From assembly GCA_016198125.1 (NCBI GenBank), contig JACQJG010000019.1:1-61911 (forward strand): DNA of 61,911 nucleotides. Reading direction: 5' to 3'. The translations under genes and the position numbers were made by a program. The notes beneath the pieces were generated by a model, which was not told the origin of the DNA, did not search any database, and was given only the letters and a program-made list of their open reading frames with translations. This DNA comes from Candidatus Iainarchaeum sp. (GTDB lineage: Archaea; Iainarchaeota; Iainarchaeia; Iainarchaeales; VGJJ01). Shown here one piece after another: positions 27,101 through 61,811 of the stretch; position 1 is the first letter of the stretch, and every line of letters begins with the position of its first letter.

Positions 27101-27153
27101 CCCCGGATGAAGTCATAAAAATGGCGCGAAGCAATGCAAAGCTGCCCAGGTGA
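24103..27153 (+). CDS. Type IV pilus/type II secretion ATPase (VirB11/CpaF/FlaI family) with intein
   Basis: SGGTGSGKT Walker A, TIED..TRE Asp box, LRMRPDRIVVGEIR Walker B, TGH...TVHA His box. Confidence 0.93.
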   Translation: MKRETMAGEKGKVIEKYTVQAEIPLEVEIHESGEEFVRVYALKYPSFGPGTRALLNELRTKIITDTSISAEKMLDLKFVETLKAQFMEKANALLKKELPEASEDVRNKIRVILIHDMLGLGHIEFLLNDGNLEEIVVNTASEPVWVYHKKHGWLKTNVFIGNEAETVNYSSIIARRVGKQITILTPLLDAHLVTGDRANATLFPISSKGNTITIRRFRRDPWTVTDFIKASTASVDVMALVWLAMQYESNIIVSGGTGSGKTSLLNVLMPFIPPNHRIVTIEDSVSGEAEILYEYRGKVFKSTVGELVDGLAEDDSIEDCMLENENDIRIPSMNPQGRIEWSKPSHFIRHRVKKDLLKITLKSGKTIEVTPDHSLFTLNTEGHISSVSGLEVKEGTWLATPRKVEWKGTNVAFDLRPHLNDLETFKGCFVKSLEIRPILQACKAPLLRRFPKATLNNAIRKNLASVEMLQLADYTPQSGWICSRLGTKIPLDIEVDEDLATFAGLWLADGCYDKNSTLVSIVEPEARVFVERVAERFGVRTKMHSDGITLMINSKPLKQFFQGVMGLDGNAYTKKMPSWVFRLEKPLIAAVLCGYFSGDGWVRKNDIAIRSSSKQLLKDVQTLLLPFGIPLRVKWKLLKDRTFEAHISTAKFLREFANQVGFVINKKTLACAKWENAQSHDVSDVIPLPKKLYVPLKKVIKNEIGRTRSYYSWKSYLGTYSLSNIGRKTLQNLAVRYVNELPPIYGELAFNDLLWDSVVSVERVPFHGFVYDFSVPGNESFVCDNVVCHNTREIQIPEFLHWVPLTTREPNAEGKGGVNMLDLLVNSLRMRPDRIVVGEIRRQREAEVMFEAMHTGHSTYTTVHANTAEETIRRLISPPIEVPVSMLEAVHLNVVMYRNRRMGMRRILQVAEFIPEKSGSESNYQLKPNILYRWKANGDRIEKYSESIRLNDELNLHTGLNASEIAEDLADRRRVLEWMVKNDIRSIGDVGRVMAQYYHAPDEVIKMARSNAKLPR
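24952..26472 (+). mobile_element. Intein with LAGLIDADG homing endonuclease (507 aa)
   Basis: Starts SVSGEAEI after TIED; VTPDHSLF block B; GLWLADG and GYFSGDG; ends VYDFSVPGNESFVCDNVVCHN/T. Confidence 0.92.
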
Positions 27154-47275: not shown

Positions 47276-47456
47276 CACCTAATTAAATACTCTGCAAGCT
47301 TTTGAAATGGCATGGGGAAAGTCAAAGACTTTTTTCGCCGAACGATCGGGCGCTGGGCCCAGATAAAGGGAACAACACGCGGTCCAGCCAAGACAACCCC
47401 CTGCAACGTCTCAAAACCGGCCTCCAAAGGAAAAGAATGTTTCCATTGTCAAACTC

Positions 47457-48080
47457 GTGTCATTCTGGCGGGACTATGACAAGGGCTTGCGCAGAAGCAA
47501 AAATCGAAAGCCCGGAAATGCACCAGGAAAACAACCTTGGTTTGACCAGTTGGGAGTAAAGAAAACCGCGCAGCCTGTGGCCGTAACAAGGACCCTTATT
47601 GGAAACGTTCGAACGTTTAAGCAAAAACGGGATTTAATAGCCCACCTTGTCCTTGTAAGGCGAATAAATGACATTGGAAGGAACGCCCATTTTAGGTATT
47701 TTGAATTCCAGCCCGCGCGCATTCTTTCCATCGACGTTCCAAGGCATCGAATCCTTGAAAGAGCGTACCGCGCGCCAAGCCTTTATGATATCACTAAAAG
47801 TGCAGAACGTGACGAGCCATTGCAACAATACTCGCTGTATGGAGATTATTTCCTTCAACGGATGAAGAGGAGGGGAATTCCAATGCCAGCAGTGGTGCGC
47901 GCCCTGTATGACATGGAAGGAGAGGTTGAACAATGGTTTAGGGACATCCCAAGATTTGACTGGCATACCTCAAACGTCCTTGTACTGGACGTTGATCCAA
48001 TAACCAAAAAACCGTTGGTTGCGTTTGTGGATCACGGCCCCCGGCCAAAAAAGTCACTAAAACAAGTGTTCGGCACTTGA
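47457..48080 (+). CDS. Basic protein with protein-kinase-like catalytic motifs
   Basis: ILERAY (hinge-like), FDWHTSNVLV (DxHxxN loop), VAFVDH (IDFG-like); start uncertain. Confidence 0.55.
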   Translation: MSFWRDYDKGLRRSKNRKPGNAPGKQPWFDQLGVKKTAQPVAVTRTLIGNVRTFKQKRDLIAHLVLVRRINDIGRNAHFRYFEFQPARILSIDVPRHRILERAYRAPSLYDITKSAERDEPLQQYSLYGDYFLQRMKRRGIPMPAVVRALYDMEGEVEQWFRDIPRFDWHTSNVLVLDVDPITKKPLVAFVDHGPRPKKSLKQVFGT

Positions 48081-48101
48081 AACTCAAACAAGCCCCTAGT
48101 C

Positions 48102-48989
48102 TCATGCGGTTCTAGTAGCAAACGCCTTCCAGCTTTTTTCCGTGTAGGAATGAACAAGTTTTTGCGCTATGATTTGGCTTTCGCATACCGCGCAAATGGT
48201 GGGCCCTGCGCCCGCAAGAATGGCATTCAAAACGCCTGGAACGCGTTTTATTTTTTCAATTTCCTGGAAAACGGGAAGGTATTCGGGTAATTTCAAGAAC
48301 TCGAATGCGTTGCCCATTTCACGCGCAACGGATTCCATGGAATGGGAATGAATGGCCGCACGCATGCGCTCCACTGAAGGATGCATGGAAACGTTTTCAA
48401 CGCGGAAGTGGGAGTAAATCCACTTGGTTTTGTCCGCAGGCACGTGAATGGGCGGCACTACAAACGCCAAAAACAAAGCCGGGCACGGTTCAATGGGGGT
48501 TATTTTTTCGCCTCTTCCCTGCGCCCTGCACGTGCCCCCATAAATGAAGAATGGAGCATCGCTGCCCAATACTGCGGCTTTTTCCGCCAATGCCTGTTTT
48601 GAAAGGTTCAACGCCCATGCCGCATTCAAAGCCTTTAAAACAGTGCCTGCATTGGAACTGCCTCCTCCAAGTCCTCCTGCGCTTGGAATTTTCTTGTCCA
48701 AAACGATTTCAATGCCCGGGGCTTTTTTTCCAGGGTTTTTTTGCACAAAGACTTCTTGCATTACTTGAACGGCCTTGAAGGCAAGGTTTTTTTCATCCGT
48801 TGGAATACTTGAGTCACTGCATTGAATGCGAATGGAAGCGGGCTCTCCACGTGGGTGAATGATAATGGTGTCATGCAATTCCAGTTCTTGCATGACAAAG
48901 TCCACTTCGTGAAAGCCATCTGAACGTTTGAATAAAATGTCGAGGATTAAATTGACTTTGGCTGGAGAGTTTAAAAGTTGCATGGGCAT
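48102..48989 (-). CDS. ispE: 4-diphosphocytidyl-2-C-methyl-D-erythritol kinase
   Basis: PAKVNLILDIL...DGFHE, KIPSAGGLGGGSSNA, LGSDAPFF, GRGEKI. Confidence 0.93.
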   Translation of the reverse strand: MPMQLLNSPAKVNLILDILFKRSDGFHEVDFVMQELELHDTIIIHPRGEPASIRIQCSDSSIPTDEKNLAFKAVQVMQEVFVQKNPGKKAPGIEIVLDKKIPSAGGLGGGSSNAGTVLKALNAAWALNLSKQALAEKAAVLGSDAPFFIYGGTCRAQGRGEKITPIEPCPALFLAFVVPPIHVPADKTKWIYSHFRVENVSMHPSVERMRAAIHSHSMESVAREMGNAFEFLKLPEYLPVFQEIEKIKRVPGVLNAILAGAGPTICAVCESQIIAQKLVHSYTEKSWKAFATRTA

Positions 48990-49381
48990 CAGGCAGTTGT
49001 TTTTGTTCTCCAATACTCATTCAAATAGGAAATTTTATTTCCTTTCATTTTTAGTATCATAATCCCAGCCATGCGGCCTTTTCTCCATTTTTGGTCGTGC
49101 GCCCATTTATGGGTGCTTTTGCATTCCCACTCTGCAAAACCCGTTTTACCGTCCAAAGAAATGTATGCTTTTTTCAGGCGAAATTGAATGCTCTTTGTAT
49201 TTTTTGCAACTACGCGTTCCCAAAAAGCCTTTATTTTTTTATGGCCCTGTAAGGGCGCGGCTAATGGACTTTCCTGATACACTGCATTTTTTATAAAACA
49301 GTCCAAAATCAGCTTTGAATCCCTTTGTTCCCAGGCTTTGCCATATAGTTCCATGACTTGTTTTACTTGGCGTGCATTCAT
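48989..49381 (-). CDS. SnoaL/NTF2-like protein
   Basis: YGKAWEQRD....CF..NAVY......GHKKI..FW; GNKISYLNEYW. Confidence 0.85.
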   Translation of the reverse strand: MNARQVKQVMELYGKAWEQRDSKLILDCFIKNAVYQESPLAAPLQGHKKIKAFWERVVAKNTKSIQFRLKKAYISLDGKTGFAEWECKSTHKWAHDQKWRKGRMAGIMILKMKGNKISYLNEYWRTKTTA

Positions 49382-49401
49382 GTACAGTACCTTTTTCTGT
49401 T

Positions 49402-50415
49402 TCAGTGCACGACATACGCAGGCCTGATAATTTCAGGCGTTGCATGATTTGCGCGGTGGTCGTATTCAATCAGCCAGTTCACCACGTCTTCAATGTCTTC
49501 GTCTGGAGTGGAAGCGCCGGCACCGATTCCAACGTGCTTTTTTCCTTTAAACCAGTCGTCTTTCAGTTCTTCCCTGCTTTCCACCCACTTCGTGTCAGTA
49601 ATTTTTGAGCATAATTCGTATTGGCGTTTGGTGTTCCCTGAATTCTTCCCCCCAATGATGATCATGCAGTCTGCTTTGTGCGCCAATTCTACTGCGCCGG
49701 GTTGCATTTCGTGCATGGCATTGCAAATCGTGTTGTACACGCGCACTTCCCGCGCCTTGTTTTGCAAAACCGAAACAATGGCTTCCACGTTGTCATTGGA
49801 TTGCGTGGTTTGGCTTACAATTCCAAGCTTTGGAATGGTGGGGTAATACAATTTCTCAACGATTTGGCCTGACTCGGTTTCGCGCATGATTTCATCCGTT
49901 GTAAAGTACTGTTTTTTGTCCAAAAAAAGTTTTTTGGCCTCTTCCGGGGTTTCAACGACAAGGGCGTTGGGCGCATAAGACTTAATGCCTTCCACTTCCG
50001 GGTGGCCGTGTTCTCCGATGACAATGACCTGGTACTTTGCATCGTACAATTCTTTTGCGGTTTTGTGCACCATGGTTACAAAAGGGCACGTGGTGTCAAC
50101 TACATTGAATCCTTTTTCCCTGGCTTTTTCCAATGCCTGGACTGGGACTCCGTGGGCGCGCATGAGCACAGTAGAACCGGAAGGAACTTCATCCATGGAC
50201 GTTAAGTGGGGCAATTTGGAGATCTTGCTTGCAGCATAGGGATTGTCTTCCACCAGTTTTCCACCCCTATTCACAATGTCTTGTACAACCCGTTGATTGT
50301 GCACGGGCATGCCATACAAGTACGCAGAACCTTTGGCAAGGGTTTCTTTGGACAGTTTAACGGAACGCTTAACGCCAAAACAGAAGCCTGCGGCTTTGGC
50401 CAGTTCAATCTTCAT
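49402..50415 (-). CDS. ispH: 4-hydroxy-3-methylbut-2-enyl diphosphate reductase
   Basis: GFCFGV, VHN, RAHGV, DTTCPFV, HPEVEG, SQTT, NTICNA, GAGASTP. Confidence 0.96.
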   Translation of the reverse strand: MKIELAKAAGFCFGVKRSVKLSKETLAKGSAYLYGMPVHNQRVVQDIVNRGGKLVEDNPYAASKISKLPHLTSMDEVPSGSTVLMRAHGVPVQALEKAREKGFNVVDTTCPFVTMVHKTAKELYDAKYQVIVIGEHGHPEVEGIKSYAPNALVVETPEEAKKLFLDKKQYFTTDEIMRETESGQIVEKLYYPTIPKLGIVSQTTQSNDNVEAIVSVLQNKAREVRVYNTICNAMHEMQPGAVELAHKADCMIIIGGKNSGNTKRQYELCSKITDTKWVESREELKDDWFKGKKHVGIGAGASTPDEDIEDVVNWLIEYDHRANHATPEIIRPAYVVH

Positions 50416-50549
50416 ATACTAAACCCCCACCCACGTGGTCTTAAACATTGGCCAAAAAGCATTTAAACCCTTCACGGTGATTGTCTAAGTGGGGTTCGAC
50501 CACTTACATTTAATGCCAGGTAAACCCCTGCCTTTGAAGGAAATTGCCC

Positions 50550-51740
50550 ATGTCAGTCCAAAAACAATATCCAAAATGCCTGGCCTTGCTGGGCAGCACG
50601 GGAAGCGTTGGAACGCAAACCCTTGACTGCGTGCGCATGCACCCAAACGAATTCAAAGTTTTGGCATTAACGGCGCAAAACAACATTGACTTATTGGAAA
50701 AGCAGGCACGCGAGTTCAGCGTGGAAACTGTGGGTATTGCCAACCTGGAAAAAGCAGAAGAGTTTAGGCGGCGCGTGAAAGGAAAAATTCACGTGGAAGA
50801 AGGATTGGAAGGCATTTTGAAAATTTGTGCATATGAGGAAGCAGACACCGTGTTAAATGCCCTGGTGGGAAACATTGGGCTGCGCCCTACGCTCCATGCC
50901 ATGAAGCATAAAAAAAACGTGGCGTTGGCCAACAAGGAAACCATGGTAAGCGGCGGAGAACTTGTCATGGAAGCCGCGCGCAGGAACAAGGTCCATTTGG
51001 TCCCCATTGACTCCGAGCACTCGGCGATCTTTCAATGTTTAAATGGGGAAAACAAGGGTGAAATAAGCAAAATCATTCTCACGTGCTCGGGCGGGCCTTT
51101 TCGCGGAAAAAAGTTAAATGAATTGAAAGGGGTAACAAAAGAGCAGGCGTTAAACCATCCCACGTGGAAAATGGGGGGCAAAATAACAATTGACTCTGCG
51201 ACCCTCATGAACAAGGGTTTTGAAGTCGTGGAAGCCATGTGGTTGTATGGGGTGGAGCCTGAACGCATTGAAGTAGTCGTTCACCCGCAAAGCCTCATTC
51301 ATTCCATGGTGGAATTCGTGGATGCAAGCATTATTGCACAACTTGGCACGCACGACATGAGAACGCCCATTCAATATGCGCTCACGTATCCAAGGCGCAT
51401 GAAATGCCCTGCGACGCGCCTCAATTTGTTGGAAGCAAAACAGTTTACGTTTGAAAAACCAGACATGGAAACCTTTCAGTGCCTTGCACGTGGCTATGAA
51501 GCGGCACGCAGGAAGGGAACGACTGCCACGGCCATCAATGCAGTTAACGATGAATGCGTGGGCGCATTCCTTGATGGAAAAATAGAGTTTTTGGACATTC
51601 AGCGCACCATTCAAAAAGTGGCTGAAAAAAACAGGCATGTAACCCACCCCGTATTGGAAGACATTTTGAACGCAGATGAGTGGGCGCGCAGGGAAACAAG
51701 AAAAGAGCTTGGAATAGAACTTTCCATTCCTGTCAGGTAA
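50550..51740 (+). CDS. dxr: 1-deoxy-D-xylulose-5-phosphate reductoisomerase
   Basis: LGSTGSVG, ALANKE, PIDSEHSAIFQ, HPTWKMGGKITIDSATLMNKG. Confidence 0.97.
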   Translation: MSVQKQYPKCLALLGSTGSVGTQTLDCVRMHPNEFKVLALTAQNNIDLLEKQAREFSVETVGIANLEKAEEFRRRVKGKIHVEEGLEGILKICAYEEADTVLNALVGNIGLRPTLHAMKHKKNVALANKETMVSGGELVMEAARRNKVHLVPIDSEHSAIFQCLNGENKGEISKIILTCSGGPFRGKKLNELKGVTKEQALNHPTWKMGGKITIDSATLMNKGFEVVEAMWLYGVEPERIEVVVHPQSLIHSMVEFVDASIIAQLGTHDMRTPIQYALTYPRRMKCPATRLNLLEAKQFTFEKPDMETFQCLARGYEAARRKGTTATAINAVNDECVGAFLDGKIEFLDIQRTIQKVAEKNRHVTHPVLEDILNADEWARRETRKELGIELSIPVR

Positions 51741-51750
51741 GGCCTGCAAC

Positions 51751-53325
51751 TCATTTTAACACGATTTCATAGGGTTGCGTGGCTTCTAATTTTGAACCGC
51801 TTCCAAGAAAAGCCTGCACATACAAGGGCACAGAGGAAACTAGACTTGGAATGGAAACTGGAATCCAGGTGTTGGTGGGCAGGGAAATAACGGTAAGGGG
51901 GGTTCCAACGAAATTCGTGCACGTGTTTCCACTGGGTTGCCCTGCCTGGCTTGTTCCAATCAACAGCGTAGATGACGCGTAATTGGCCGACGTTATTTGA
52001 ACGTTAACAGTTTCTCCCGGTGAAGGAATGCCTTGAATGTGCAATGCAGGCGTATCATTGACCCCGCAGGCAAGACCATACGGTTTTAGGGTTCCATTGA
52101 AAAAAGTCCATGCCTGCAGGAGGCCGTTTTTATTTGCGGTTGCAATAAAAAAGTCATCGACTCCATTTCCCTCCACGTCTATATTTCCACTCACGGCTTC
52201 TCCAAACTCTGAATTGGATTGCGGGCCCTCAAGGCTTGCTAAAACAGCCCCATTCTTTCCGGATAACACGCGTGCCATGCCCTTAAATTGATTGGCCAGG
52301 GGCGCGCCTGCAAGGACATCCGAGAAACCATCGTTGTCTGCATCCCCTGCATCTGCAACTGCCTTGCCAAACCAGGAAGCAAAAGGCCCATCGGCTTTCC
52401 AAACAAGGGTTTTTGAAACGCCATCATACACGTATACGCGGCCGTTGTTGGAACTGTTAAAAAAAGGGGCTCCAACCACCAAATCTTCCACGTGGTCTCC
52501 GGTGGCATCTTCAATTTGCGCAATTGCCCACCCAAACCAGTCTTGTGCGGCCTCGCCATAAAAAGTGTGCAGGGGCAGAAACGTTTTCCCGGAAAAAACA
52601 AGGACCTTGCCTTCCGGGTTTTGATTGTATAACCCATACGGGGCTCCTGCTGCAAAGTCAGGAACGGCATCGCCATCAAAGTCTGAGAATGCCGTGAGCG
52701 AATACCCTAATTGGCTGGGAGTCAGCCCATTTATTTTTTTCACCAATGCATTTGTTTTTGGGGAAAAAATGTGCACGCTTCCTTCGTTAAAGGCAAGTAC
52801 ATCATGATAGGGGCTGCCAACCAGTATTTCTGGAAAACCGTCTCCTGTTAAATCGCCCATTCCTGCAACACTCCACCCAAAAATGTCTCCTGAATTTTCT
52901 CCGGAAGCGGAGAAAAGAACGCTTCCATTGGCCCCGGACAAAACGCGAACATACCCGGGACCGCTGGGCAGTCCGTCATTCCATTGGGGGGCTCCTACAA
53001 TGAGTTCAGGAACACTGTCCCCGCTGATGTCGGGTATTTTTCCCAATGCGTGCCCAAACCAGTCTCCATTGTTTTGGCCAAACCTTTCCCAAATGACTTG
53101 GCCGTTTTTTCCGGAAAAAAGAACGACTTTATTGGACGCAATGGACCCGGATGCAAGGTCAACAAACCCGTCAAGGTCAACGTCTGCCAAGGGCATCACA
53201 GAACGGCCAATGAATTCTCCGGGGGTTCCATTAACTTCCAGCAACATGCTGGGGGCTGGAAGCGACCACGCAGAAGAGAGTAAGAACAAAAACCCTGCCA
53301 TGCCAAGAAAATGCGCGAATTTCAT
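51751..53325 (-). CDS. Secreted FG-GAP (integrin-alpha-like) beta-propeller protein
   Basis: Signal peptide; about seven FG....DxxGDGxxDxxVGAP...G.V...SG repeats. Confidence 0.9.
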   Translation of the reverse strand: MKFAHFLGMAGFLFLLSSAWSLPAPSMLLEVNGTPGEFIGRSVMPLADVDLDGFVDLASGSIASNKVVLFSGKNGQVIWERFGQNNGDWFGHALGKIPDISGDSVPELIVGAPQWNDGLPSGPGYVRVLSGANGSVLFSASGENSGDIFGWSVAGMGDLTGDGFPEILVGSPYHDVLAFNEGSVHIFSPKTNALVKKINGLTPSQLGYSLTAFSDFDGDAVPDFAAGAPYGLYNQNPEGKVLVFSGKTFLPLHTFYGEAAQDWFGWAIAQIEDATGDHVEDLVVGAPFFNSSNNGRVYVYDGVSKTLVWKADGPFASWFGKAVADAGDADNDGFSDVLAGAPLANQFKGMARVLSGKNGAVLASLEGPQSNSEFGEAVSGNIDVEGNGVDDFFIATANKNGLLQAWTFFNGTLKPYGLACGVNDTPALHIQGIPSPGETVNVQITSANYASSTLLIGTSQAGQPSGNTCTNFVGTPLTVISLPTNTWIPVSIPSLVSSVPLYVQAFLGSGSKLEATQPYEIVLK

Positions 53326-53431
53326 GAAAAGCTTGCCTTTCCAAAATAATAAAAGGTTTTACCCAAATGGGCTTCCTTTCCTCACAGCGCTTTTAAAGAC
53401 CTCGCAGAGAGTACAATAACCGGGGAAGCAT

Positions 53432-54136
53432 ATGACGGTGTGGGCCATTGTGGGAGCAGGAGGCATTGGAAAGCGCATGGGCGCTGGCAAGAACAAAGTG
53501 CTTTTGAAAGTGGCGGGAAAAGAAGTGCTTGCGCATACGTTACAGGTGTTCGAAGGCACGCGGGTAGTAGACAAAGTCCTTTTAGTCATTCACCCGGACA
53601 ATGCAATGGAAGCCCAAAAACTTGTGAAAAAGTACGCGTTCAAAAAAGTGCACGCCATTGTGCAAGGAGGAAGGGAAAGACAGGATTCTGTGTGGAACGG
53701 CCTTCAAAAGGCCAGGGAATTGGGCGCAGAAAAAGGAGACTTTCTTTGCATTCATAACGGGGCCAATCCGCTGGTTCAACCTGCAGAAATTAAAGCGTGT
53801 TTGGATGCTGCACGCGAAACCAAGGCGGCGGTGCTGGGTTTTAAGGTCAAAGACACTCTTCGAAGGGTAAGTGAAAACCTTGTGAGCCTTGGCACGGTGG
53901 ACCGCAAAGGATTGTGGGCCATGCAAACCCCGCAGTGCATTGAATTTTCTCTTGCATGGAACGCGTTTGAAAACGCAATGAAAGAAGGGTTTTATGGCAC
54001 GGATGATGTCCAACTGGTTGAACGAATGGGGCACCCCGTACGGGTGGTGGAATGCGGGTATGAAAACATAAAACTCACAACGCCGGAAGATTTGCGCATC
54101 GCGGAAGGCATTTTTAAACAACGCGCTAAAAAATAA
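53432..54136 (+). CDS. ispD: 2-C-methyl-D-erythritol 4-phosphate cytidylyltransferase
   Basis: GAGGIGKRM..NK, GGRERQDSV, IHNGANP, QTPQ, TDD, NIKLTTPED. Confidence 0.95.
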   Translation: MTVWAIVGAGGIGKRMGAGKNKVLLKVAGKEVLAHTLQVFEGTRVVDKVLLVIHPDNAMEAQKLVKKYAFKKVHAIVQGGRERQDSVWNGLQKARELGAEKGDFLCIHNGANPLVQPAEIKACLDAARETKAAVLGFKVKDTLRRVSENLVSLGTVDRKGLWAMQTPQCIEFSLAWNAFENAMKEGFYGTDDVQLVERMGHPVRVVECGYENIKLTTPEDLRIAEGIFKQRAKK

Positions 54137-54573
54137 TGGAGGGCTTTATGAAAAATGTTGTTTCATTCATTGAAATGCAAACCCGACAGGTAATGGAATT
54201 TCATGACATTACAGAAAAGGTCAGAGAAGCCGTAAAGAAAAGCAATGTAAAAGAGGGCCTTGTCAACGTGTTCACGCAGCACACCACGTGCTGTGTTAAA
54301 ATTAATGAATTTGAAGAAAAGTTAATGCAGGATTTTTACCAGTTTCTTGAAAAGCGCGTTCCCCAGTTTGAAAAATACGGCCACGACATTAACCCTGTTG
54401 ACGGAAGAAAGAATGCGCACTCGCACTTGAAATCCCTTATTTTGAACACGTCTGAATGCATTCCCCTGCAAAAAGGAGAATTGCTGTTAGGCACATGGCA
54501 ACGCGTTTTCTTTGTGGAATTGGACGGGCCAAGAGAAAAAAGAAAAGTCATTGTGCAAGTGCTTGGCGAATAG
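54136..54573 (+). CDS. yjbQ: YjbQ/UPF0047 family protein
   Basis: DITEKV, HTT...INE, NAHSHLKS, LGTWQRVFFVELDGPR. Confidence 0.93.
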   Translation: MEGFMKNVVSFIEMQTRQVMEFHDITEKVREAVKKSNVKEGLVNVFTQHTTCCVKINEFEEKLMQDFYQFLEKRVPQFEKYGHDINPVDGRKNAHSHLKSLILNTSECIPLQKGELLLGTWQRVFFVELDGPREKRKVIVQVLGE

Positions 54574-54594
54574 GTTTTAAGGAAGTGAACGTGC

Positions 54595-55893
54595 ATGAAC
54601 AAAGAGGATATGAATGGCTTTCTTGCACTGGGAAAAGACCTGGGGCAGGAGTATGCCTTGTTTACTTATCTCATTGAAACCCCTATTGACCCTGTGACTG
54701 CAGGCGCGCATTTGTGCCAGGAGCAGAGCACGGCCCAATGGCACCGCGTGGGAGTGGAAGAGGATTTCCGGGAAAAATACGGCGCAAAAGTAGTGTCATG
54801 CAAAACACTGGAAGTGAATTCAAAGCCCAAGATTCAGGCATTTGTAGAAGGGGAAAAATACACGATTGCAGAAATAAAAATCGCGCACCCTACCATTAAT
54901 TTTGGCCCAAAAATCCCGAATCTTATCACGGCGGCTGCTGGGGAAGGGGCGTTTCACTGCCCGGCAGTGAACACCATCAAACTGGTCAACGTTGAATTGC
55001 CTGAAAAATACCTGCGCGCTTTTGAAGGCCCCAAATTTGGACTGAAAGGGCTGCGCCGGGTAATGAAAGTAAAAGACCGGCCTTTTTTCTTTGGGGTGGT
55101 AAAACCCAACATTGGATTGCCTCCAAAACCGTTTGCAGAACTTGCATACCAGGCATGGAAAGGCGGCTTGGACGCGTGCAAGGACGATGAACTGCTTTCC
55201 GATGTGGAATACTCGCCGCTCAAAAAAAGACTTGAACTGGTTTTGGAAAAAATGTTCAAGGCAGAACAGGAAACGGGCGAAAAGAAAATGTTTGTTGCCA
55301 ATATCACAGACGAAGTGGACCGCGTCCTGGAACTGCATGACTTGGTTGCAGGAATGGGGGGAAATGCAGTCATGGTTAATGCATTTCCTGTGGGGTTGAG
55401 CGGGGTGCGCATGCTGGCAAAAAAAACAAAAATACCCGTTGTGGCGCACTTTGATTTTATTGCGCCTTTCACGCGAATGCCATACTTTGGAGTTAAATCT
55501 GAACTTATCACACGACTGCAACGCCTGGCTGGATGCGATGCCATTATCATGCCCGGACTGGGAAAACGCATGCTGGTGGCAGAAGAAGAAGTCAAGGAAA
55601 ACGTGAAGGCGTGCTTGTATGACATGAAGAACATTCAGCCCTGCCTTCCAGTTCCCGGCGGCAGTGATTGGGCAGGGTCCCTGCCAAAAATGCATGAGGC
55701 TTTTCAAACGGTTGACTTTGGAATGGTGCCTGGAAGAGGCGTGTTTGGCCATCCTTTGGGGCCAGAAGGCGGGGCACGGAGTTTGCGCGAGGCGTGGGAA
55801 GCCCTGGAAAAAGGGGTTTCGCTGGAAAAGCATGCGGAAACGCATGAGGCTTTGCGCACGGCCATTGAGTGCTTTGGAAAAAAGAAGGAGTGA
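54595..55893 (+). CDS. rlp: RuBisCO-like protein (form IV), IV-Photo/Chlorobium type
   Basis: EQSTAQW.RVGV.EDFR, NFGPKIPNL, FFGVVKPNIGL, GGLD..KDDE, ANITDEVD, IMPG.G.RM, PCLPVPGGSD, VPGRGVFGHP. Confidence 0.92.
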   Translation: MNKEDMNGFLALGKDLGQEYALFTYLIETPIDPVTAGAHLCQEQSTAQWHRVGVEEDFREKYGAKVVSCKTLEVNSKPKIQAFVEGEKYTIAEIKIAHPTINFGPKIPNLITAAAGEGAFHCPAVNTIKLVNVELPEKYLRAFEGPKFGLKGLRRVMKVKDRPFFFGVVKPNIGLPPKPFAELAYQAWKGGLDACKDDELLSDVEYSPLKKRLELVLEKMFKAEQETGEKKMFVANITDEVDRVLELHDLVAGMGGNAVMVNAFPVGLSGVRMLAKKTKIPVVAHFDFIAPFTRMPYFGVKSELITRLQRLAGCDAIIMPGLGKRMLVAEEEVKENVKACLYDMKNIQPCLPVPGGSDWAGSLPKMHEAFQTVDFGMVPGRGVFGHPLGPEGGARSLREAWEALEKGVSLEKHAETHEALRTAIECFGKKKE

Positions 55894-56393
55894 AAAGAGT
55901 GTACCGTATTGGGTTTGGAGTGGATTCTCACCGGTTTGAAGCTGTTTCAACGGGCAAAAAACTCATGCTGGGGGGCATTGAAATCCCCCATCCTGTTGGA
56001 ATGGAGTCGCATTCAGATGGCGATGTGATTTTACATGCCTTGTACAATGCGCTGGCCAGTGCCTTGGGAGAAGGAAGCATTGGCACGGCGTTTCCAGATT
56101 CGAAAGAAGAAAACCAGGGACGCGATTCCAAAGAATTCGTTGCACACATTCTACAAAAAACAAGACAAGAAGGCTACATAATTCAGAATGTGGGGGTTAG
56201 CTTGGAGTGCAAAACCCCGAAAATCAACCCGCATGAAAAGGCCTTCAAGGAGTCCATTGCACAGTTGCTGGGCATTAAAGTCGAACAGGTAGCCGTGCAC
56301 GCTACCACGGGAGAAAGCCTTACGGCTGTTGGAAAAGGAAAAGGCATTTACACCCAAGTCATTGTACTCTTGGAAAAACACCAAAAACGTTGA
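55890..56393 (+). CDS. ispF: 2-C-methyl-D-erythritol 2,4-cyclodiphosphate synthase
   Basis: RIGFGVDSHRF, LGGIEIP, HSDGDVILHA, IGTAFPDS, ATTGE; GTG start overlapping the RLP stop (or GTG at 55899). Confidence 0.94.
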   Translation: MKRVYRIGFGVDSHRFEAVSTGKKLMLGGIEIPHPVGMESHSDGDVILHALYNALASALGEGSIGTAFPDSKEENQGRDSKEFVAHILQKTRQEGYIIQNVGVSLECKTPKINPHEKAFKESIAQLLGIKVEQVAVHATTGESLTAVGKGKGIYTQVIVLLEKHQKR

Positions 56394-56485
56394 ATGACGT
56401 AAAATGATTTGGGGATTAACGTAAGGCTTTTAAATGGGGTCCGGTTGGAATATTTTATACTGTTTATTGGGGGTGGGGCCCTTCC

Positions 56486-58285
56486 ATGTATGAAACCAAA
56501 ATCACCACTAAACTATTGAGTAAAGTGAACAGCCCGCAGGACATCAAGCATTTTTCTTTCCCGAAACTCAATGAGCTTGCAGAGGAAGTGCGGGAAACGC
56601 TTATCTGCGTGTGCGCAAAAAATGGAGGGCACATTGGCACGAACCTGGGGGTCGTGGAGTTAACGATTGCACTGCATTACGCGTTTGATTCTCCAAAAGA
56701 CAAACTGGTGTTTGACACCACCCATCAAACGTACACGCACAAACTGCTCACTGGAAAACGGGAAAAGTTTGACACGATTTGCACGCCAAAAGGCATTCCG
56801 CGTTTTTCCGTGCGCTCAGACAATGTGCATGACTGCTGGGGCGCTGGACACGCGTCCACTGGTTTGAGTGCGGCCATGGGCATGGCCGAGGCAAGAAAGC
56901 GCAACAAAAAACAATACGAAGTAGTGGCCATCGTTGGAGACGGGGCCATGACAGGCGGCATGTGCTTTGAGGCTATGAACAACATTGGGTACAATCAAAC
57001 GGATTTACTCATTGTATTGAATGACAATAAAATGAGCATTTCTCCCAACGTGGGCGCTTTGTATGAGTACATGAAGCGCCTGTCCATGACCAGTGCCTCA
57101 GACAAGCCGCGCAGGGAAATTGGAACCATTTTTGAAAAACTGGGCATCAGGTATTATGGCCCGGTAGACGGACACGACATTGAAGGATTGGTGCAGGCGT
57201 TCAACGAATTAAAGCACATTCGCGGCCCCAAACTGTTGCATGTTCTAACAGAAAAAGGAAAGGGCATGCAGTACATGGAAAAAGACAAGGCCCGGTGGCA
57301 TGAACATGCAGCGTTTGACATTGAAACAGGGGATCCTGTAAAACCCAAAAGCCCTACCCTGGAAGGAGTGGCCGTGCAGGCGCTCATAGAACTTGCGGAA
57401 AAAGACGATTCCATTATTGGCATTACTGCGGCCATGCCGTCTGGAACTGCAATGGCCAAGTTTGGAGAAAAGTTTCCTGACCGGTTTTATGATGTGGGAA
57501 TCGCGGAAGAACATGCGACTACTTTTGCTGCCGGGCTTGCGTGCGAAGGCGTGAAACCATTTGTGTGCATTTACTCTCCTTTTTTACAGCGCGCATTTGA
57601 CCAAATCATGCATGATGTTTCATTGCAGGATTTGCCGGTGCGGTTCATGGTGCCCAAAGCCGCGATTACAGGCGATGGCCCCACCCAAGGAGGCATTTTG
57701 GATTTGAGTTATTTGCGCGTCATTCCTAACACCGTAGTGATGGCGCCAAAAGATGAGAATGAGTTGCGGCACATGATTAAAACCATGCAACTCTATGAAA
57801 AAGGGCCCATCAGCGTGCGCTACCCCAAAGGAAACATAAACTCAATTCCTGCTGAACCCTTAAAGGAAATTCCCATTGGCCAGGCAGAGGTTTTACGCGA
57901 AGGAAAAGACGTGGCGCTGATTGCCATTGGAAGCATGGTGGGGGACGCGTTAAAGGCTTCGGATCAATTAAAAGGAATGGGCATTGAGGCTGCTGTGGTA
58001 AACGCGCGCTTTGCCAAGCCCTTGGACGAAAAAACCATTATTCATGCGCTAAAAACGTGCGGTAAAGGCATTACCTTGGAAGAAAACACCCTTGTGGGCG
58101 GGTTTGGAAGCGCGGTGCTTGAACTCCTAGAAAGCAGGGGCTTGCAAGACATTCACGTGACGCGCATTGGCGCACCGGATGAGTACATTGGGTATGATGA
58201 TCCTAAGAACATTAAAGCCGGGTATGGAATGAATGTGGAAAGCATTGTGGCGCGCGCAAAGGAATGGGTTGCACGAACCAAGTAA
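56486..58285 (+). CDS. dxs: 1-deoxy-D-xylulose-5-phosphate synthase
   Basis: GGH...LGVVELTIALH, HQ.Y.HK.LTG, GHAST, GDGAMTGG..FEAMN, NDN.MSI, YYGPVDGHD, ITAAMPSGT, DVGIAEEHA. Confidence 0.94.
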   Translation: MYETKITTKLLSKVNSPQDIKHFSFPKLNELAEEVRETLICVCAKNGGHIGTNLGVVELTIALHYAFDSPKDKLVFDTTHQTYTHKLLTGKREKFDTICTPKGIPRFSVRSDNVHDCWGAGHASTGLSAAMGMAEARKRNKKQYEVVAIVGDGAMTGGMCFEAMNNIGYNQTDLLIVLNDNKMSISPNVGALYEYMKRLSMTSASDKPRREIGTIFEKLGIRYYGPVDGHDIEGLVQAFNELKHIRGPKLLHVLTEKGKGMQYMEKDKARWHEHAAFDIETGDPVKPKSPTLEGVAVQALIELAEKDDSIIGITAAMPSGTAMAKFGEKFPDRFYDVGIAEEHATTFAAGLACEGVKPFVCIYSPFLQRAFDQIMHDVSLQDLPVRFMVPKAAITGDGPTQGGILDLSYLRVIPNTVVMAPKDENELRHMIKTMQLYEKGPISVRYPKGNINSIPAEPLKEIPIGQAEVLREGKDVALIAIGSMVGDALKASDQLKGMGIEAAVVNARFAKPLDEKTIIHALKTCGKGITLEENTLVGGFGSAVLELLESRGLQDIHVTRIGAPDEYIGYDDPKNIKAGYGMNVESIVARAKEWVARTK

Positions 58286-58323
58286 ACGTAATTTTATACA
58301 TAACCTGTTTTTGGAGAAGCCTC

Positions 58324-59013
58324 ATGACTCACGAACGTTTTTTGTTTGTAAATTTTAAAGCCTATTTGGAAGCTTCTCACACCCGCGCCTTGGATTTGGT
58401 CAAAGCCATGGAAGACGTGCAGGAAACGCATGAAAAAATTACTTTGATTCCAGTAGTGCAAGCGTTAGACCTTGCCTGGTTGCAGGATAAAACATCCTTG
58501 CCCTTGTGGGGCCAGCACGCGGACTCCATTCAACCAGGAGCATTCACCGGGCACGTGCTGCCCGAGGCCCTGAAAATAGCGGGGGCAACAGGAACGTTGG
58601 TGAATCATGCAGAGCGCAAAGTCGATAATGCGGTGCTTGAAAGGACAATGGCCCGGTGCAGGGAAGCAACCCTTTTGATTCAGGCTTGCGCAGAAACTGT
58701 GGAACGCGCCATTCAAATCGCTTCCATGCCCGTTCAACCGAACTTCATTGCATTCGAGCCCCCGGAATTGATTGGAGGTACTGTCTCAGTGTCCAGTGCA
58801 CAACCGGAAATCGTGCAACGCTTCGTGGAAAAAGTAAGAGAACGCTCTCCAAATACCATTCCCATTTGCGGGGCCGGAGTTAAGAACGCCCAAGACGTGG
58901 CCAAGGCATTGGAATTGGGCACGCAAGGAATTTTAGTGGCCAGCGGCGTTGTGAAAGCACCCAATCAAAAAGAAGCATTGGAAGAATTGTGCAAGGGGTT
59001 CGGTCAACGTTAA
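58324..59013 (+). CDS. tpiA: Triosephosphate isomerase, archaeal type
   Basis: VNFKAY, QHAD, GAFTG, NHAER, EPPELIG, CGAGV, LVASGVVKA. Confidence 0.95.
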   Translation: MTHERFLFVNFKAYLEASHTRALDLVKAMEDVQETHEKITLIPVVQALDLAWLQDKTSLPLWGQHADSIQPGAFTGHVLPEALKIAGATGTLVNHAERKVDNAVLERTMARCREATLLIQACAETVERAIQIASMPVQPNFIAFEPPELIGGTVSVSSAQPEIVQRFVEKVRERSPNTIPICGAGVKNAQDVAKALELGTQGILVASGVVKAPNQKEALEELCKGFGQR

Positions 59014-59040
59014 GTGCAATTATATTTGTGGTGCCGGCAG

Positions 59041-59424
59041 TCACGCTTTTCGCTTGACCCATTCCACGTTTTTCATTTCGGCGAAGGCCTTATCCCCTGT
59101 AAGAAATTTTATTTTTTGCTTCAAGGAAATGGAATACCCAATGCAGTCCACGTATGAAAGATTCAGTTTAGGATTTTGCGCGCGCATTCTTGCCGCATTT
59201 TTGAATGCATTGTCGTCCATGTCAATTGTTTGGGGCAAAAAAGCGGCATAATACTTTTCGGCCAGGGCTTCATCAGCCTCCCTGAGGGTTGAATAATACA
59301 ATTCCATTAGATTGAGTTTTGTTGTGATAATCGTGTGCCGTTCAAAGTAGGAAAGGTAATCGGGATTGTCCTTGAGGTACTCTATAAGAGCAAATGTGTC
59401 GGCAAAATACTGCACTATCCCCAC
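59041..59424 (-). CDS. vapC: PIN-domain toxin (VapC)
   Basis: FADTFALIE, NLMELYY, LSYVDCIGY, FLTGDKAF. Confidence 0.9.
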   Translation of the reverse strand: MGIVQYFADTFALIEYLKDNPDYLSYFERHTIITTKLNLMELYYSTLREADEALAEKYYAAFLPQTIDMDDNAFKNAARMRAQNPKLNLSYVDCIGYSISLKQKIKFLTGDKAFAEMKNVEWVKRKA

Positions 59425-59630
59425 CCTTTCCGGATTTCATCCATGAGTTCCTGGGTGGGCTTTTTGCGCGGAAAGGTTCCGCGAAGGGTTTTAAGGGCGT
59501 CTATTTTTTGCACGGTGACAAGCAGTTTATCCAGGGGGTGAATTTTCTGCCGTTTTACGACCTCGTTATCAACAATTAAACTAATGGAATTGCCCCATTT
59601 CTTTGCTTCCACGGTTATTGTGTCACTCAT
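59415..59630 (-). CDS. vapB: AbrB/MazE-family antitoxin
   Basis: KKWGNSISLIV; overlaps the PIN gene. Confidence 0.88.
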   Translation of the reverse strand: MSDTITVEAKKWGNSISLIVDNEVVKRQKIHPLDKLLVTVQKIDALKTLRGTFPRKKPTQELMDEIRKGWG

Positions 59631-59634
59631 AAAA

Positions 59635-59650
59635 TATCATCTAAATGATA
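59635..59650. promoter_or_regulatory. Putative antitoxin operator palindrome
   Basis: TATCAT-ctaa-ATGATA directly upstream of the antitoxin start. Confidence 0.5.
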
Positions 59651-59796
59651 CAATAAGTATAACTCGTATTTAAGTTTATGTGGGCATAAGCGCCGGTGAA
59701 TAAGCCAATCTCTTTTAACCCTCCACCCTGCGACCAAAAAGAAAACTCCTTTTCTGGCCCCCTCATAGAGGCAAGGATTTGAAGGGGGGTTTTAAT

Positions 59797-60024
59797 TTGG
59801 CGGATTCGGGTGAAAGCAACAAACGCTTATTTGAATTACTGGCACTCGCCATTGTAGGCGTGGCCATCATAGGAATCGCATTCGTGATAACAGGCAATCA
59901 AAGCCAGCAAAACAACAGTGCAGGGCAGGCCTTGGCCGGTGCCGTTGGTGGAACCAGCACAGCCCCCCACGAGAAGGCTTATAAGGGCACTGAACCCTGG
60001 AATCCAGCCGGAACACCGAAGTAA
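59797..60024 (+). CDS. Small single-TM protein
   Basis: TM LLALAIVGVAIIGIAFVITG; T-rich tract downstream; TTG start uncertain. Confidence 0.6.
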   Translation: MADSGESNKRLFELLALAIVGVAIIGIAFVITGNQSQQNNSAGQALAGAVGGTSTAPHEKAYKGTEPWNPAGTPK

Positions 60025-60108
60025 AAACCTTGCGTGCCTCCTTTTTTTCTTTTTTGAGGCCATGCGCCTTAACAACGTTTTTTAACCTGGCCCTCTTTAA
60101 TTTAATGC

Positions 60109-61170
60109 ATGCCCGGCGAAAAAACCGAACAACGCAAAGCAGAGCATTTGAAGATTTGCGCGAAAGGGGATTTGGGCAAGATTACGTTTACAAACAAGAC
60201 AACAGGTTTTGAAGAAATTGATTTAATTCCAAGCGCGTTGCCTGAGATAAGCAAAGACGAAGTGGAATTGGAAACAGAATTCTTGGGCAAGCCCTTGGCA
60301 TTCCCGTTAATTGTAAGCAGCATGACTGGCGGTTGCAAGGAAGCGGGGGAAGTGAACAACGATATTGCGTCTGCGTGTGAAGAACTTGGAATTGGCATGG
60401 GCGTTGGAAGCATGCGCGCCATGATTGAAAACCCTGCACTGGCATACACCTACAAAGTGCGCGACGTGGCGCCAAACATTTTCCTGAATGGAAACATTGG
60501 GGTTTCACAGCTCAAAGGAATGGATTTGGAAAAACTCGCAGGGGCATTAAACGAAGTGGATGCAGACGCGCTGGCCATTCACCTGAACCCCGCCCAGGAA
60601 GCCGTGCAAAAAGAAGGCACTACAGACTTCAAAGGACTGGCAAAAGAAATTGAACGGACAGTGAAAAAACTGTCTGCCCCTGTTTTTGTAAAAGAAGTTG
60701 GAAATGGCATTTCACGTGAAACTGCACGGCTCCTTGTACAAACAGGAATTCAAGCCATTGACGTTTCCGGGGCAGGTGGAACGAACTGGGTGAAAATTGA
60801 TGCCATGCGCGGAAAAAATACAAATGCCGAATACTTGTATGAGTGGGGCGTGCCCACGGCGCTTGCGATCGTGGAAGCGCGTTCTGTATACAACCAAACC
60901 ATTCTTGCGTCCGGGGGGATTAGAAACGGCTTGGACATTGCCAAAGCCTTGATTTTGGGCGCGGATTTGTGCAGCATTGCACTCCCTGTGCTGCGTGCGC
61001 AAGCGGACGGAGGCAAGGAAGGCGTTGTAGAGTACCTGACCCGCATCCAAGGGGAACTGCGCACGGTCATGTTCCTTGTAGGGGCAAAGAACTTGAACGA
61101 GTTGAAAGACAAAAAAATCGTGGTGCACGGGAAAATGCGGGAATGGTTGAAGCAACGCGGAAAGGGTTGA
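60109..61170 (+). CDS. fni: Type 2 isopentenyl-diphosphate delta-isomerase (FMN-dependent)
   Basis: RKAEHL, SMTGG, GVGSMR, IHLNPAQEAVQ.EG, VKEVGNG, DVSGAGGTNW, ASGGIRNGLD. Confidence 0.96.
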   Translation: MPGEKTEQRKAEHLKICAKGDLGKITFTNKTTGFEEIDLIPSALPEISKDEVELETEFLGKPLAFPLIVSSMTGGCKEAGEVNNDIASACEELGIGMGVGSMRAMIENPALAYTYKVRDVAPNIFLNGNIGVSQLKGMDLEKLAGALNEVDADALAIHLNPAQEAVQKEGTTDFKGLAKEIERTVKKLSAPVFVKEVGNGISRETARLLVQTGIQAIDVSGAGGTNWVKIDAMRGKNTNAEYLYEWGVPTALAIVEARSVYNQTILASGGIRNGLDIAKALILGADLCSIALPVLRAQADGGKEGVVEYLTRIQGELRTVMFLVGAKNLNELKDKKIVVHGKMREWLKQRGKG

Positions 61171-61181
61171 AAGAAAAAATG

Positions 61182-61652
61182 TCAGCCCGTATAACTTTCC
61201 TTCAAATGCCCCAGCACTTCTTCAATGCGCGTGCAATTCTGTTGAGCGGCTGCAGTAATGTAATGGCTGAACGCGGCTTGGATGTCGTCTTTTTCGTGCA
61301 CGGGAGAATGGTTGAAGTGGTAGCGTTGCTTGGTGCGTTTCAAGAAGTGCACGTCTATTAAGCGTTTCAAATGGTAGCGTAAAAGCTTGTCCGAGACTTT
61401 TTCCTGGGATTTTTCCAAAATGTAGGCTTGCAGGTCAATGGTAGAGGGGTTCATTTTCTTTGTAAATTGATAGTAAAACAATGCGTCTAAAACGTCCAAC
61501 ATGGTGGTGCGCGATTCTTTCTCAGAGATGAGGCCAAAACTTAACGCAAACCAGCGCAGCAGGGAACGCTTGGTCAACCGCACATTGGGAGGCAAGTCCA
61601 TTTCCTTGAAGGTAAACGTTCTGCGCACCAGCGCGCTTTCCGGAAAAGCCAT
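61182..61652 (-). CDS. Winged-helix (ArsR-like) protein
   Basis: LLRWFALSFGLIS..ESR, LLRYHLKRLID.....R; start uncertain. Confidence 0.7.
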   Translation of the reverse strand: MAFPESALVRRTFTFKEMDLPPNVRLTKRSLLRWFALSFGLISEKESRTTMLDVLDALFYYQFTKKMNPSTIDLQAYILEKSQEKVSDKLLRYHLKRLIDVHFLKRTKQRYHFNHSPVHEKDDIQAAFSHYITAAAQQNCTRIEEVLGHLKESYTG

Positions 61653-61811
61653 TTTGAACACCAACAAAGTTTTAGTTTTTCTCATAGAGTATTCTGAACC
61701 CTTATTTAAAGGTTTTGACCTGCATTCAAAAACTAGGTTTTTAAACACGGAACACATAGTATTAGCAATGCGTTAAACGCGTTTTTTCGCAGAGTGTCGG
61801 GGTGAATAACA

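Follow-up and report, generated by a model that had tools for sequence, protein, structure and literature searches.

Clusters of genes for the MEP (2-C-methyl-D-erythritol 4-phosphate) pathway in DPANN archaea were reportedly described by Castelle and Banfield in 2018, whose work is cited by Castelle et al. 2021. In the portions of the publications available to us, MEP genes are reported in DPANN archaea (Hoshino & Gaucher 2018, PMC6107057), in orders of the Micrarchaeota (PMC12892359), and in a clade of 52 Woesearchaeota genomes in which they are co-located and whose patchy distribution was attributed to horizontal transfer (Castelle et al. 2021, PMC8204110). The tables of the last paper already touch the Diapherotrites, giving a share of 12% for the IspH family among 25 genomes of the group (Table S3) and listing one Diapherotrites MEP neighborhood with adjacent UPF0047 and RuBisCO_large open reading frames (ORFs) (Table S4), and the available portion of its main text discusses neither the Diapherotrites nor RuBisCO-like proteins (RLPs) (PMC8204110). 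DPANN archaea were noted to use either isoprenoid pathway, but not both (Ludington et al. 2017). In a literature search that left subscription journals mostly outside, we found no main-text report of the MEP pathway in Diapherotrites or Iainarchaeota. Here we analyze a MEP gene cluster at positions 48102-61170 of contig JACQJG010000019.1 of Candidatus Iainarchaeum sp. (assembly GCA_016198125.1; the whole stretch of 61,911 nucleotides is called the window), and suggest that it is likely a genuine, chromosomally fixed cluster of a small DPANN archaeon whose bacterial-type enzymes replaced the mevalonate (MVA) pathway as the source of isopentenyl diphosphate (IPP) as well as dimethylallyl diphosphate (DMAPP). 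The occurrence of the pathway in DPANN is already known, because MEP genes of these archaea, tables on Diapherotrites included, are in print; an earlier note on this DNA, made from the sequence alone, had stressed the rarity of the pathway among archaea, and it was right about the DPANN occurrence but assumed a thinner print record than exists. What is added here is a quantified exclusivity of the MEP enzyme Dxr and the mevalonate-pathway enzyme HMG-CoA reductase (HMGR), a missing ispG gene together with an exchanged triose-phosphate isomerase (TIM), and a lead from the context of a YjbQ-RLP gene pair.

The window takes up all of contig C12, one of the 20 contigs of a metagenome bin of 845,833 bp that is 71% complete and 0.66% contaminated. 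Gene identities were tested against the curated cut-offs of NCBIfam models, with Pfam as a second check. The genes of the interval follow the order ispE(-), SnoaL-like(-), ispH(-), dxr(+), FG-GAP(-), ispD(+), YjbQ(+), RLP(+), ispF(+), dxs(+), tpiA(+), PIN toxin with a small ORF (both -), and fni(+). The earlier note had read six MEP genes within 10 kb, and all six lie where it had placed them, in 10.2 kb: ispE for 4-diphosphocytidyl-2-C-methyl-D-erythritol (CDP-ME) kinase (48102..49013, minus strand; TIGR00154, 220.1 bits, cut-off 138.7), ispH (LytB) for 4-hydroxy-3-methylbut-2-enyl diphosphate (HMBPP) reductase (49402..50415, minus; TIGR00216, 249.7 bits, cut-off 187.85), dxr for DXP (1-deoxy-D-xylulose 5-phosphate) reductoisomerase (50544..51740, plus; NF009114, 503.1 bits, cut-off 461; TIGR00243, 462.9 bits), ispD for MEP cytidylyltransferase (53432..54136, plus; TIGR00453, 210.1 bits, cut-off 181.3), ispF for 2-C-methyl-D-erythritol 2,4-cyclodiphosphate (MEcPP) synthase (55869..56393, plus; TIGR00151, 172.2 bits, cut-off 116.45), and dxs for DXP synthase (56486..58285, plus; TIGR00204, 691.3 bits, cut-off 465.95). 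All of them are full length and exceed their NCBIfam equivalog cut-offs, and the Pfam domains agree; in the Dxs translation a GDG...NDN stretch is visible, presumably the signature that binds thiamine diphosphate (ThDP). The two genes that the earlier note saw behind dxs are also as described, namely an archaeal-type tpiA for TIM (58264..59013, plus; NF003302, 224.9 bits, cut-off 132), whose start codon is uncertain as the family match starts at residue 25, and fni for type 2 IPP isomerase (IDI-2) (60109..61170, plus; TIGR02151, 389.7 bits, cut-off 281.3). From ispD to tpiA (53432-59013) the genes ispD-YjbQ-RLP-ispF-dxs-tpiA form a compact same-strand string with overlaps or gaps of less than 100 nt, the listed ispF ORF overlapping the end of the RLP gene by 25 nt. 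Directly upstream of the cluster, again as noted before, lies the gene for an archaeal RecJ/GAN-family nuclease (44315..47275, plus; NF053576 RecJ_archaeal, 481.6 bits, cut-off 360) with a LAGLIDADG intein inside (Intein_splicing, LAGLIDADG_3). Because genes for six of the seven MEP enzymes sit in 10.2 kb and their order is kept in relatives, we do not regard the arrangement as a chance pattern.

Compared with the DPANN MEP clusters in print, the locus shares the co-location of bacterial-type MEP genes in small genomes and an archaeal lipid gene nearby (UbiA in the paper by Castelle et al., a geranylgeranyl reductase in the related genome G001). It differs in that the whole family is MEP-only while most of the order keeps HMGR, and in that the cluster lacks ispG and carries an archaeal-type TIM gene. 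When compared with the MEP pathway of bacteria such as E. coli, Bacillus and Clostridia, each enzyme passes the equivalog model for the bacterial enzyme, and Dxr is 54-55% identical to clostridial proteins. The MEP genes of E. coli are scattered. Here, by contrast, they form one cluster, linked with genes for IDI-2 and an archaeal TIM, and would feed the enzymes of sn-glycerol-1-phosphate ether lipids, beginning with geranylgeranylglyceryl phosphate synthase (GGGPS).

The cluster was compared with 17 genomes of the same family, f1 (18 with the own genome), within an order of 196 genomes. In all four family genomes whose gene order was compared (G001, G007, G002, and G010), the order RecJ-ispE-(SnoaL)-ispH-dxr-ispD-ispF-dxs is kept, and one of these genomes, G001, is a single contig of 1,048,949 bp. 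Dxr is present in 17 of the 17 relatives, in 16 of them above the cut-off and in G017 as a fragment at a contig end. Identity to the proteins of the relatives is 50-56% for IspE and reaches 74% for IspH, the best conserved of the MEP enzymes. Among strains, ispE, ispH, dxr, dxs, and fni differ by 17 synonymous against 4 non-synonymous changes, consistent with purifying selection on the MEP genes and fni.

Some genes of the cluster come and go among the relatives. A SnoaL-like protein of 130 residues (48989..49381, minus strand; PF12680, 37.4 bits) has no role in the MEP pathway that we know of; G001 and G010 keep it between ispE and ispH (53-54% identity; L020:5482-5871 and L023:15199-15609), and in G007 and G002 it was not found. 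In relatives, a NUDIX-domain gene overlaps the end of ispD (L020:11700-12338, L021:11694-12398, and L023:10949-11611), of which tblastn found no homologue in the own genome. Type 1 IPP isomerases are Nudix proteins, and the gene of the relatives could encode a second isomerase or an IPP/DMAPP phosphatase. The FG-GAP repeat gene between dxr and ispD (51751..53325, minus; PF01839, 110.5 bits, 5 repeats), at whose place G010 has a SET-domain gene, is probably a passenger. Next to fni, a conserved protein of 191 residues without a family match in Pfam or NCBIfam (61182..61757, minus) is a recurrent neighbor of the cluster, found near dxs, fni, or ispG in three families at 44-58% identity: beside dxs in G049 (58%; L024:15512-15961) and near fni or ispG in L051 (8204-8638) and L052 (5340-5804). 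Possibly it regulates the cluster.

The earlier note had proposed to look for mevalonate genes elsewhere. HMGR (PF00368) is absent from all 18 family genomes, the one-contig G001 included, and mevalonate kinase (TIGR00549) gave no match in the own genome; the search for the pathway covered these two enzymes and did not extend to HMG-CoA synthase or isopentenyl-phosphate kinase. Of the 196 genomes in the order, 32 have Dxr (30 above the cut-off) and 128 have HMGR, and 31 of the 32 Dxr-positive genomes are without HMGR. The two enzymes occur together in G191 alone, which has a Dxr fragment of 193 residues and 5% contamination. Kin are not independent, and counted by genus Dxr is present in 10 of 73 genera; the switch between Dxr and HMGR falls between genera within families f2, f25, and f11. 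The HMGR majority fits a survey that assigned MVA genes to its Iainarchaeota metagenome-assembled genomes, as far as the available portion of that survey goes (PMC10936187). Neither enzyme was found in 37 of the 196 genomes, mainly in families f3 (0 of 22 with either) and f31 (0 of 7), and these lineages may make no isoprenoid precursors. The f3 and f31 genomes concerned measure 0.5-1.1 Mb. A near-exclusive pair of enzymes, with one overlap in 196 genomes and with switches between genera of the same family, offers a natural system for studying the replacement of an essential pathway.

We suggest the following scheme. Dxs, Dxr, IspD, IspE, IspF, and IspH, together with IspG in the relatives, would supply IPP and DMAPP, the bacterial-type cluster being combined with native archaeal genes for IDI-2 and TIM, of which the archaeal-type TIM could balance dihydroxyacetone phosphate (DHAP) and glyceraldehyde 3-phosphate (GAP) for Dxs. 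The products would pass to archaeal ether-lipid enzymes, i.e. GGGPS, a UbiA-family protein resembling digeranylgeranylglyceryl phosphate synthase (DGGGPS), and geranylgeranyl reductase, and also to a cis-prenyltransferase making polyprenol carriers. The own genome encodes a GGGPS (273.6 bits, cut-off 247), a cis-prenyltransferase (UPPS; 201.9 bits, cut-off 109.55), two UbiA-family proteins, one of which best matches DGGGPS, and, on contig C2, a geranylgeranyl reductase homologue 66% identical to the reductase inside the MEP cluster of G001. Of the lipid enzymes that the earlier note wished to see, GGGPS and cis-prenyltransferase are therefore in place, while the DGGGPS assignment remains below its cut-off. 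With GGGPS, a DGGGPS-like UbiA, and a cis-prenyltransferase present and with HMGR and mevalonate kinase absent, we infer, as the earlier note did, that the MEP products would be used for lipids and glycan carriers. In terms of the 'lipid divide', archaeal-type isoprenoid ether lipids would here be built from precursors of a bacterial pathway, a combination that is already in print and of which this locus is a clean and well-supported example. On C2, the reductase homologue lies ~5 kb from the cis-prenyltransferase gene (C2:100235-106792), a grouping unlike that in the sister genus.

Regarding the origin of the enzymes, the closest named Dxr proteins are labeled Diapherotrites, Iainarchaeum, or 'archaeon' (56-63% identity), followed by Woesearchaeota (50-55%) and Clostridia (Peptostreptococcaceae and Epulopiscium, 54-55%). 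Dxr is the one enzyme of the seven for which trees were built, with FastTree; they contain the top 120 database hits, most of them unnamed, and a second tree also includes 12 relatives. One branch (support 99) splits the named DPANN from the named Firmicutes, and the Dxr of the window is the earliest branch of a 27-sequence clade of its family, on a long branch (0.44). The Dxr proteins of families f2, f13, and f18 fall in a different clade, and the deep nodes are unsupported (69). Because of these deep nodes, the mostly unnamed sequences, and the long branch, the trees do not decide between one and several acquisitions, nor do they name a donor. Among the top 120 hits of fni, 15 proteins are named and all come from DPANN archaea, which points to an archaeal (DPANN) ancestry of this gene. 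The cluster thus looks like a mosaic of imported and native genes, and a horizontal origin of the MEP enzymes, as put forward in the earlier note, fits the data: the nearest named non-DPANN Dxr is clostridial, and fni and TIM are archaeal in type. The fni of the window is 52-59% identical to many IDI-2 proteins labeled Diapherotrites and 45-47% identical to the fni of genus g2 of its own family, and the two genera may hold different fni lineages.

Two genes between ispD and ispF encode a YjbQ/UPF0047 protein (54136..54573, plus strand; TIGR00149, 133.6 bits, cut-off 67.75) and an RLP of 432 residues (54595..55893, plus). The RLP aligns end to end with Photo RLPs, at 499.6 bits with that of Chlorobium tepidum (1TEL/1YKW) and at 476.3 bits with RLP2 of Rhodopseudomonas palustris (2QYG), whereas its scores with other classes are 198 bits (3NWR) and 153 bits (the YkrW/MtnW enolase, 2OEK). 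In RuBisCO the catalytic residues lie in the motifs KPK, KDDE, HRAxH, SGG(L)H, and GGGxHGH, which are present in five form III-like homologues of the order, whereas the RLP of the window has KPN, KDDE, HFDFI, PGGS, and GRGVFGH; the C. tepidum RLP shares KPN, KDDE, and H-F-x-F-I. From its pairwise scores, the reference Photo sequences lying outside the tree described below, we classify the protein as form IV, Photo-like, and not a carboxylase. A form III RuBisCO was considered for 54595-55893 and rejected on the Photo RLP scores and the non-canonical catalytic motifs. What sets the protein apart from the known Photo RLPs is its archaeal host and its place inside a MEP operon behind a YjbQ gene. 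One DPANN RLP, in a Micrarchaeota genome, is reported in the available portion of Jaffe et al. 2018 (PMC6389311), and the available portion of Miller et al. 2018 gives the Photo class no assigned reaction (PMC5893883). In our search, again mostly outside subscription journals, we found no literature linking YjbQ/UPF0047 with RuBisCO or RLPs.

A RuBisCO homologue of some kind occurs in 118 of the 196 genomes of the order, and an RLP with at least 50% identity to that of the window in 6 of the 195 others, four within the family (G014, G005, G010, and G013) and two outside (G029 and G069). The order ispD-(NUDIX)-YjbQ-RLP-ispF-dxs is shared by G010, G014, and G005, and in G013 the contig starts inside the RLP gene and continues with ispF and dxs. 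G029, of family f13, has dxs-YjbQ-RLP-ispG, and in G069 the RLP gene lies near genes for fumarase, malic enzyme, and an IF-2B-family isomerase. Among genome contigs an RLP search gave 4 loci, which are all from DPANN; among metagenome contigs a profile search gave 80 loci at 49-71% identity. YjbQ stands directly upstream in 24 of the 60 metagenome loci with at least 450 nt of upstream sequence and is partial in 3 more. MEP genes stand beside the RLP gene in 2 of the 80, namely L052, whose RLP is identical to that of G029, and L051, probably the record of G013. Seven bacterial-looking loci have the order xseA-(small ORF)-farnesyl diphosphate (FPP) synthase-YjbQ-RLP (FPP synthase NF045485, 383 bits, cut-off 275); they comprise one cut locus and 6 of the 18 YjbQ loci whose sequence reaches 1 kb farther upstream. 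The place directly behind FPP synthase (ispA) is the site of dxs in many bacteria. In 29 of the 80 loci the RLP gene is found, without YjbQ, together with genes for UPF0261, class II aldolase, RpiB, MBL-fold, Zn-ADH, DHDPS-family, and DUF1667 proteins. A FastTree tree with its root on form III puts the archaeal MEP-embedded RLPs in a single clade (support 97); the RLPs linked to YjbQ are paraphyletic and branch basally, and a clade of 44 sequences, which holds most loci of sugar-phosphate or other context, has zero YjbQ-linked members.

The MTA (methylthioadenosine)-isoprenoid shunt, reportedly first described by Erb et al. in 2012, also connects an RLP with the MEP pathway, through its entry compound DXP. 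According to the available portions of two papers, in Rhodospirillum rubrum and R. palustris an RLP of the DeepYkr class converts 5-methylthioribulose-1-phosphate to 1-methylthioxylulose-5-phosphate, from which a cupin then frees DXP (PMC5893883, PMC4958253). At the locus studied here the RLP is Photo-like and not DeepYkr, the IF-2B/MtnA family (PF01008) is absent from all 18 family genomes, there is no cupin domain among the cluster proteins (a genome-wide cupin search was not made), and the partner is YjbQ. The canonical shunt was marked down as the function of the RLP on the absence of IF-2B/MtnA and on the class of the protein.

We rather favor the explanation that the YjbQ-RLP pair is a passenger without a link to isoprenoids, with, for example, a stress or sulfur role as reported for the Chlorobium Photo RLP, and with an accidental position. 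The pair is present in just 4 of the 17 family relatives, the 29 metagenome loci of sugar-phosphate type have neither YjbQ nor isoprenoid genes, the lack of IF-2B/MtnA throughout the family points the same way, and the available portion of the work on R. palustris places Photo RLP2 outside the MTA-isoprenoid shunt, with a trace of isomerization in vitro (Miller et al. 2018, PMC5893883). An accidental position accounts less well for the recurrence of the pair inside MEP clusters in two arrangements and two families, between ispD and ispF in f1 and between dxs and ispG in f13, and for its place behind FPP synthase in the seven bacterial-looking loci. As this context is seen three times independently (in the MEP operon of f1, between dxs and ispG of G029, and behind FPP synthase), we put forward, tentatively and as the doubtful option, that YjbQ and RLP might be a two-gene module acting where the MEP pathway begins, on ketose phosphates of five carbons. 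It could, for instance, be an isomerase route forming or repairing DXP, with 5-deoxy- or 5-methylthio-pentulose phosphates, by-products of S-adenosylmethionine (SAM) chemistry, as the starting compounds. A prediction of the RLP-YjbQ complex (alignments A1 and A2, run without controls) scored 0.00 and gives no answer either way. If the module were real, it would give the first physiological role to the Photo RLPs and to the long-orphan YjbQ family; in any case, the placement of the RLP gene beside dxs, ispF, ispG, or ispA makes a testable substrate hypothesis and a lead on an RLP class of unassigned function.

A second RLP context was noticed in the metagenome loci, a conserved bacterial operon UPF0261-(RidA)-glyoxalase-class II aldolase-UPF0261-RLP, with RpiB-MBL fold-Zn-ADH-DHDPS family-DUF1667 behind it on the other strand (L079, L088, L092, L101, L104, L105, L108, L118, and others). 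It looks like an uncharacterized catabolic route for sugar or sugar-acid phosphates around a Photo-like RLP.

The proposal that the MEP cluster feeds the isoprenoid metabolism of its host has several observations against it. The seventh enzyme, IspG, is indispensable and, to our knowledge, has no substitute, and ispG gave no match in the assembly with TIGR00612, the best tblastn hit with the IspG proteins of G001 and G010 having an E-value of 0.58. In the relatives ispG is present in 16 of 17 genomes and follows dxs directly wherever its position is visible; in the window this usual place is filled by tpiA and a VapBC-like pair, a junction confirmed by contigs from other samples. A trans-prenyl diphosphate synthase (PF00348), which 16 of the 17 relatives have, was not found in the assembly either, and the UbiA match to DGGGPS falls short of its cut-off (207.9 against 296 bits). 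The TIM gene itself has changed: a close homologue of the archaeal-type tpiA is found in none of the 17 family genomes, and G010 and G005 have a bacterial-type TIM close to fni, of which the own assembly, with the archaeal type only, has none. This suggests that a TIM gene was kept near the cluster and its type exchanged.

From these observations one could argue that the pathway is broken, ispG having been lost in the rearrangement between dxs and fni, so that the remaining genes are relics or serve compounds derived from DXP or MEP, with isoprenoids or lipids coming from a host cell. DXP is also a precursor of thiamine and pyridoxal, and the NCBIfam name of YjbQ is 'secondary thiamine-phosphate synthase enzyme'. 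Scavenging of lipids is plausible in the group, given the 37 genomes of the order without Dxr and HMGR, and the failure of both the hidden Markov model (HMM) and tblastn to find ispG, the absent PF00348 synthase, and the confirmation of the dxs-tpiA-PIN junction in three samples are as expected from a loss. We nevertheless consider a broken pathway unlikely. The other six MEP genes are full length and above their equivalog cut-offs, and IspH, which would be without a substrate if IspG were gone, is the best conserved of them. The assembly is about 0.85 Mb compared with 0.8-1.3 Mb in the relatives, and its completeness of 71%, the intact and highly conserved ispH, and the ratio of 17 synonymous to 4 non-synonymous variants make an assembly gap likelier than a true loss of ispG. 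A location of ispG outside the cluster also has a precedent in the order, since G049 carries it on a different contig from dxr. We assume that the gaps for ispG and for the trans-prenyl synthase may both be assembly gaps, the two genes lying in the unassembled part of the genome, in which case a complete MEP pathway could run in this archaeon.

The reality of the locus itself was examined from several sides. Tetranucleotide correlation with the genome mean is 0.960-0.978 for the six 10-kb pieces of the contig, against an average of 0.964 (SD 0.017) for all pieces of the genome. The stretch is present in four groundwater-metagenome runs of one study (X1-X4, of which X1 may be the source sample), and no RNA run was among those listed with it. 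Contigs of X2 span 46103-50362 (RecJ to ispH), 50333-54848, 54963-56735, and 57596-59523 (dxs-tpiA-PIN) with zero differing letters, the last junction is confirmed by contigs of X2, X3, and X4, and read depth is even (~20x in X1, 15x in X2), which supports the integrity of the contig, a point that the earlier note had advised to check. X1 and X4 each contain one contig that joins 46668 to 60468; the joint has a shorter side of 21 letters with 151 foreign letters between, and was taken as an assembly-graph artefact. The host is archaeal, as seen from its small-subunit (SSU) rRNA (16S, 1392 bits), from GGGPS adjoining the gene for replication factor A (RPA), from TYW1, archaeal RqcH, and archaeal RecJ, and from the inteins. 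Although the MEP genes are bacterial in type, with a clostridial Dxr as the nearest named one outside DPANN, and the genome is a 20-contig metagenome bin, the idea of an assembly or binning artefact, with bacterial DNA joined to a contig of archaeal origin or with a non-archaeal host, is hardly credible, as the order from archaeal flank to MEP genes recurs in four relatives, one of them a single-contig genome, Dxr occurs in all 17 family genomes, the composition matches the rest of the genome, contigs of a separate sample join RecJ to ispH at even depth, and archaeal tpiA and fni lie in the cluster of a genome with archaeal 16S and GGGPS. Synteny, composition, bridging contigs, and even depth exclude a chimera for practical purposes, and both dangers that the earlier note had named, a chimera and a non-archaeal host, are contradicted by composition, synteny, bridging contigs, and 16S.

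The remaining features of the window lie around the cluster. The rearranged interval between dxs and fni is occupied by the VapBC-like pair (59041-59630), composed of a PIN toxin gene (59041..59424, minus strand; PF01850, 39 bits) and, upstream of and overlapping it, an ORF of 71 residues (59415..59630, minus) without a Pfam match, a putative antitoxin by its position. A MazF/PemK toxin gene lies in the dxs-fni interval of G010, and toxin-antitoxin genes seem to be a mark of this variable place. Searches of the window with ARAGORN and Rfam gave neither a tRNA nor an Rfam family. TYW1, archaeal RqcH, and an aCPSF1-like nuclease are encoded elsewhere in it, and the pilus genes mentioned in the earlier note are indeed on the contig, as a FlaI/VirB11-type ATPase with an intein, two T2SSF genes, and KaiC/FlaH-like genes at about 24-31 kb. 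Large inteins with LAGLIDADG-type endonuclease domains split two genes, those for archaeal RecJ (44315-47275) and the FlaI/VirB11-type ATPase (24103-27153). The RecJ of the window aligns with that of G010 over 749 residues and with those of G001, G007, and G002 in two short pieces, and from the length of the former alignment the RecJ of G010 probably bears an intein as well.

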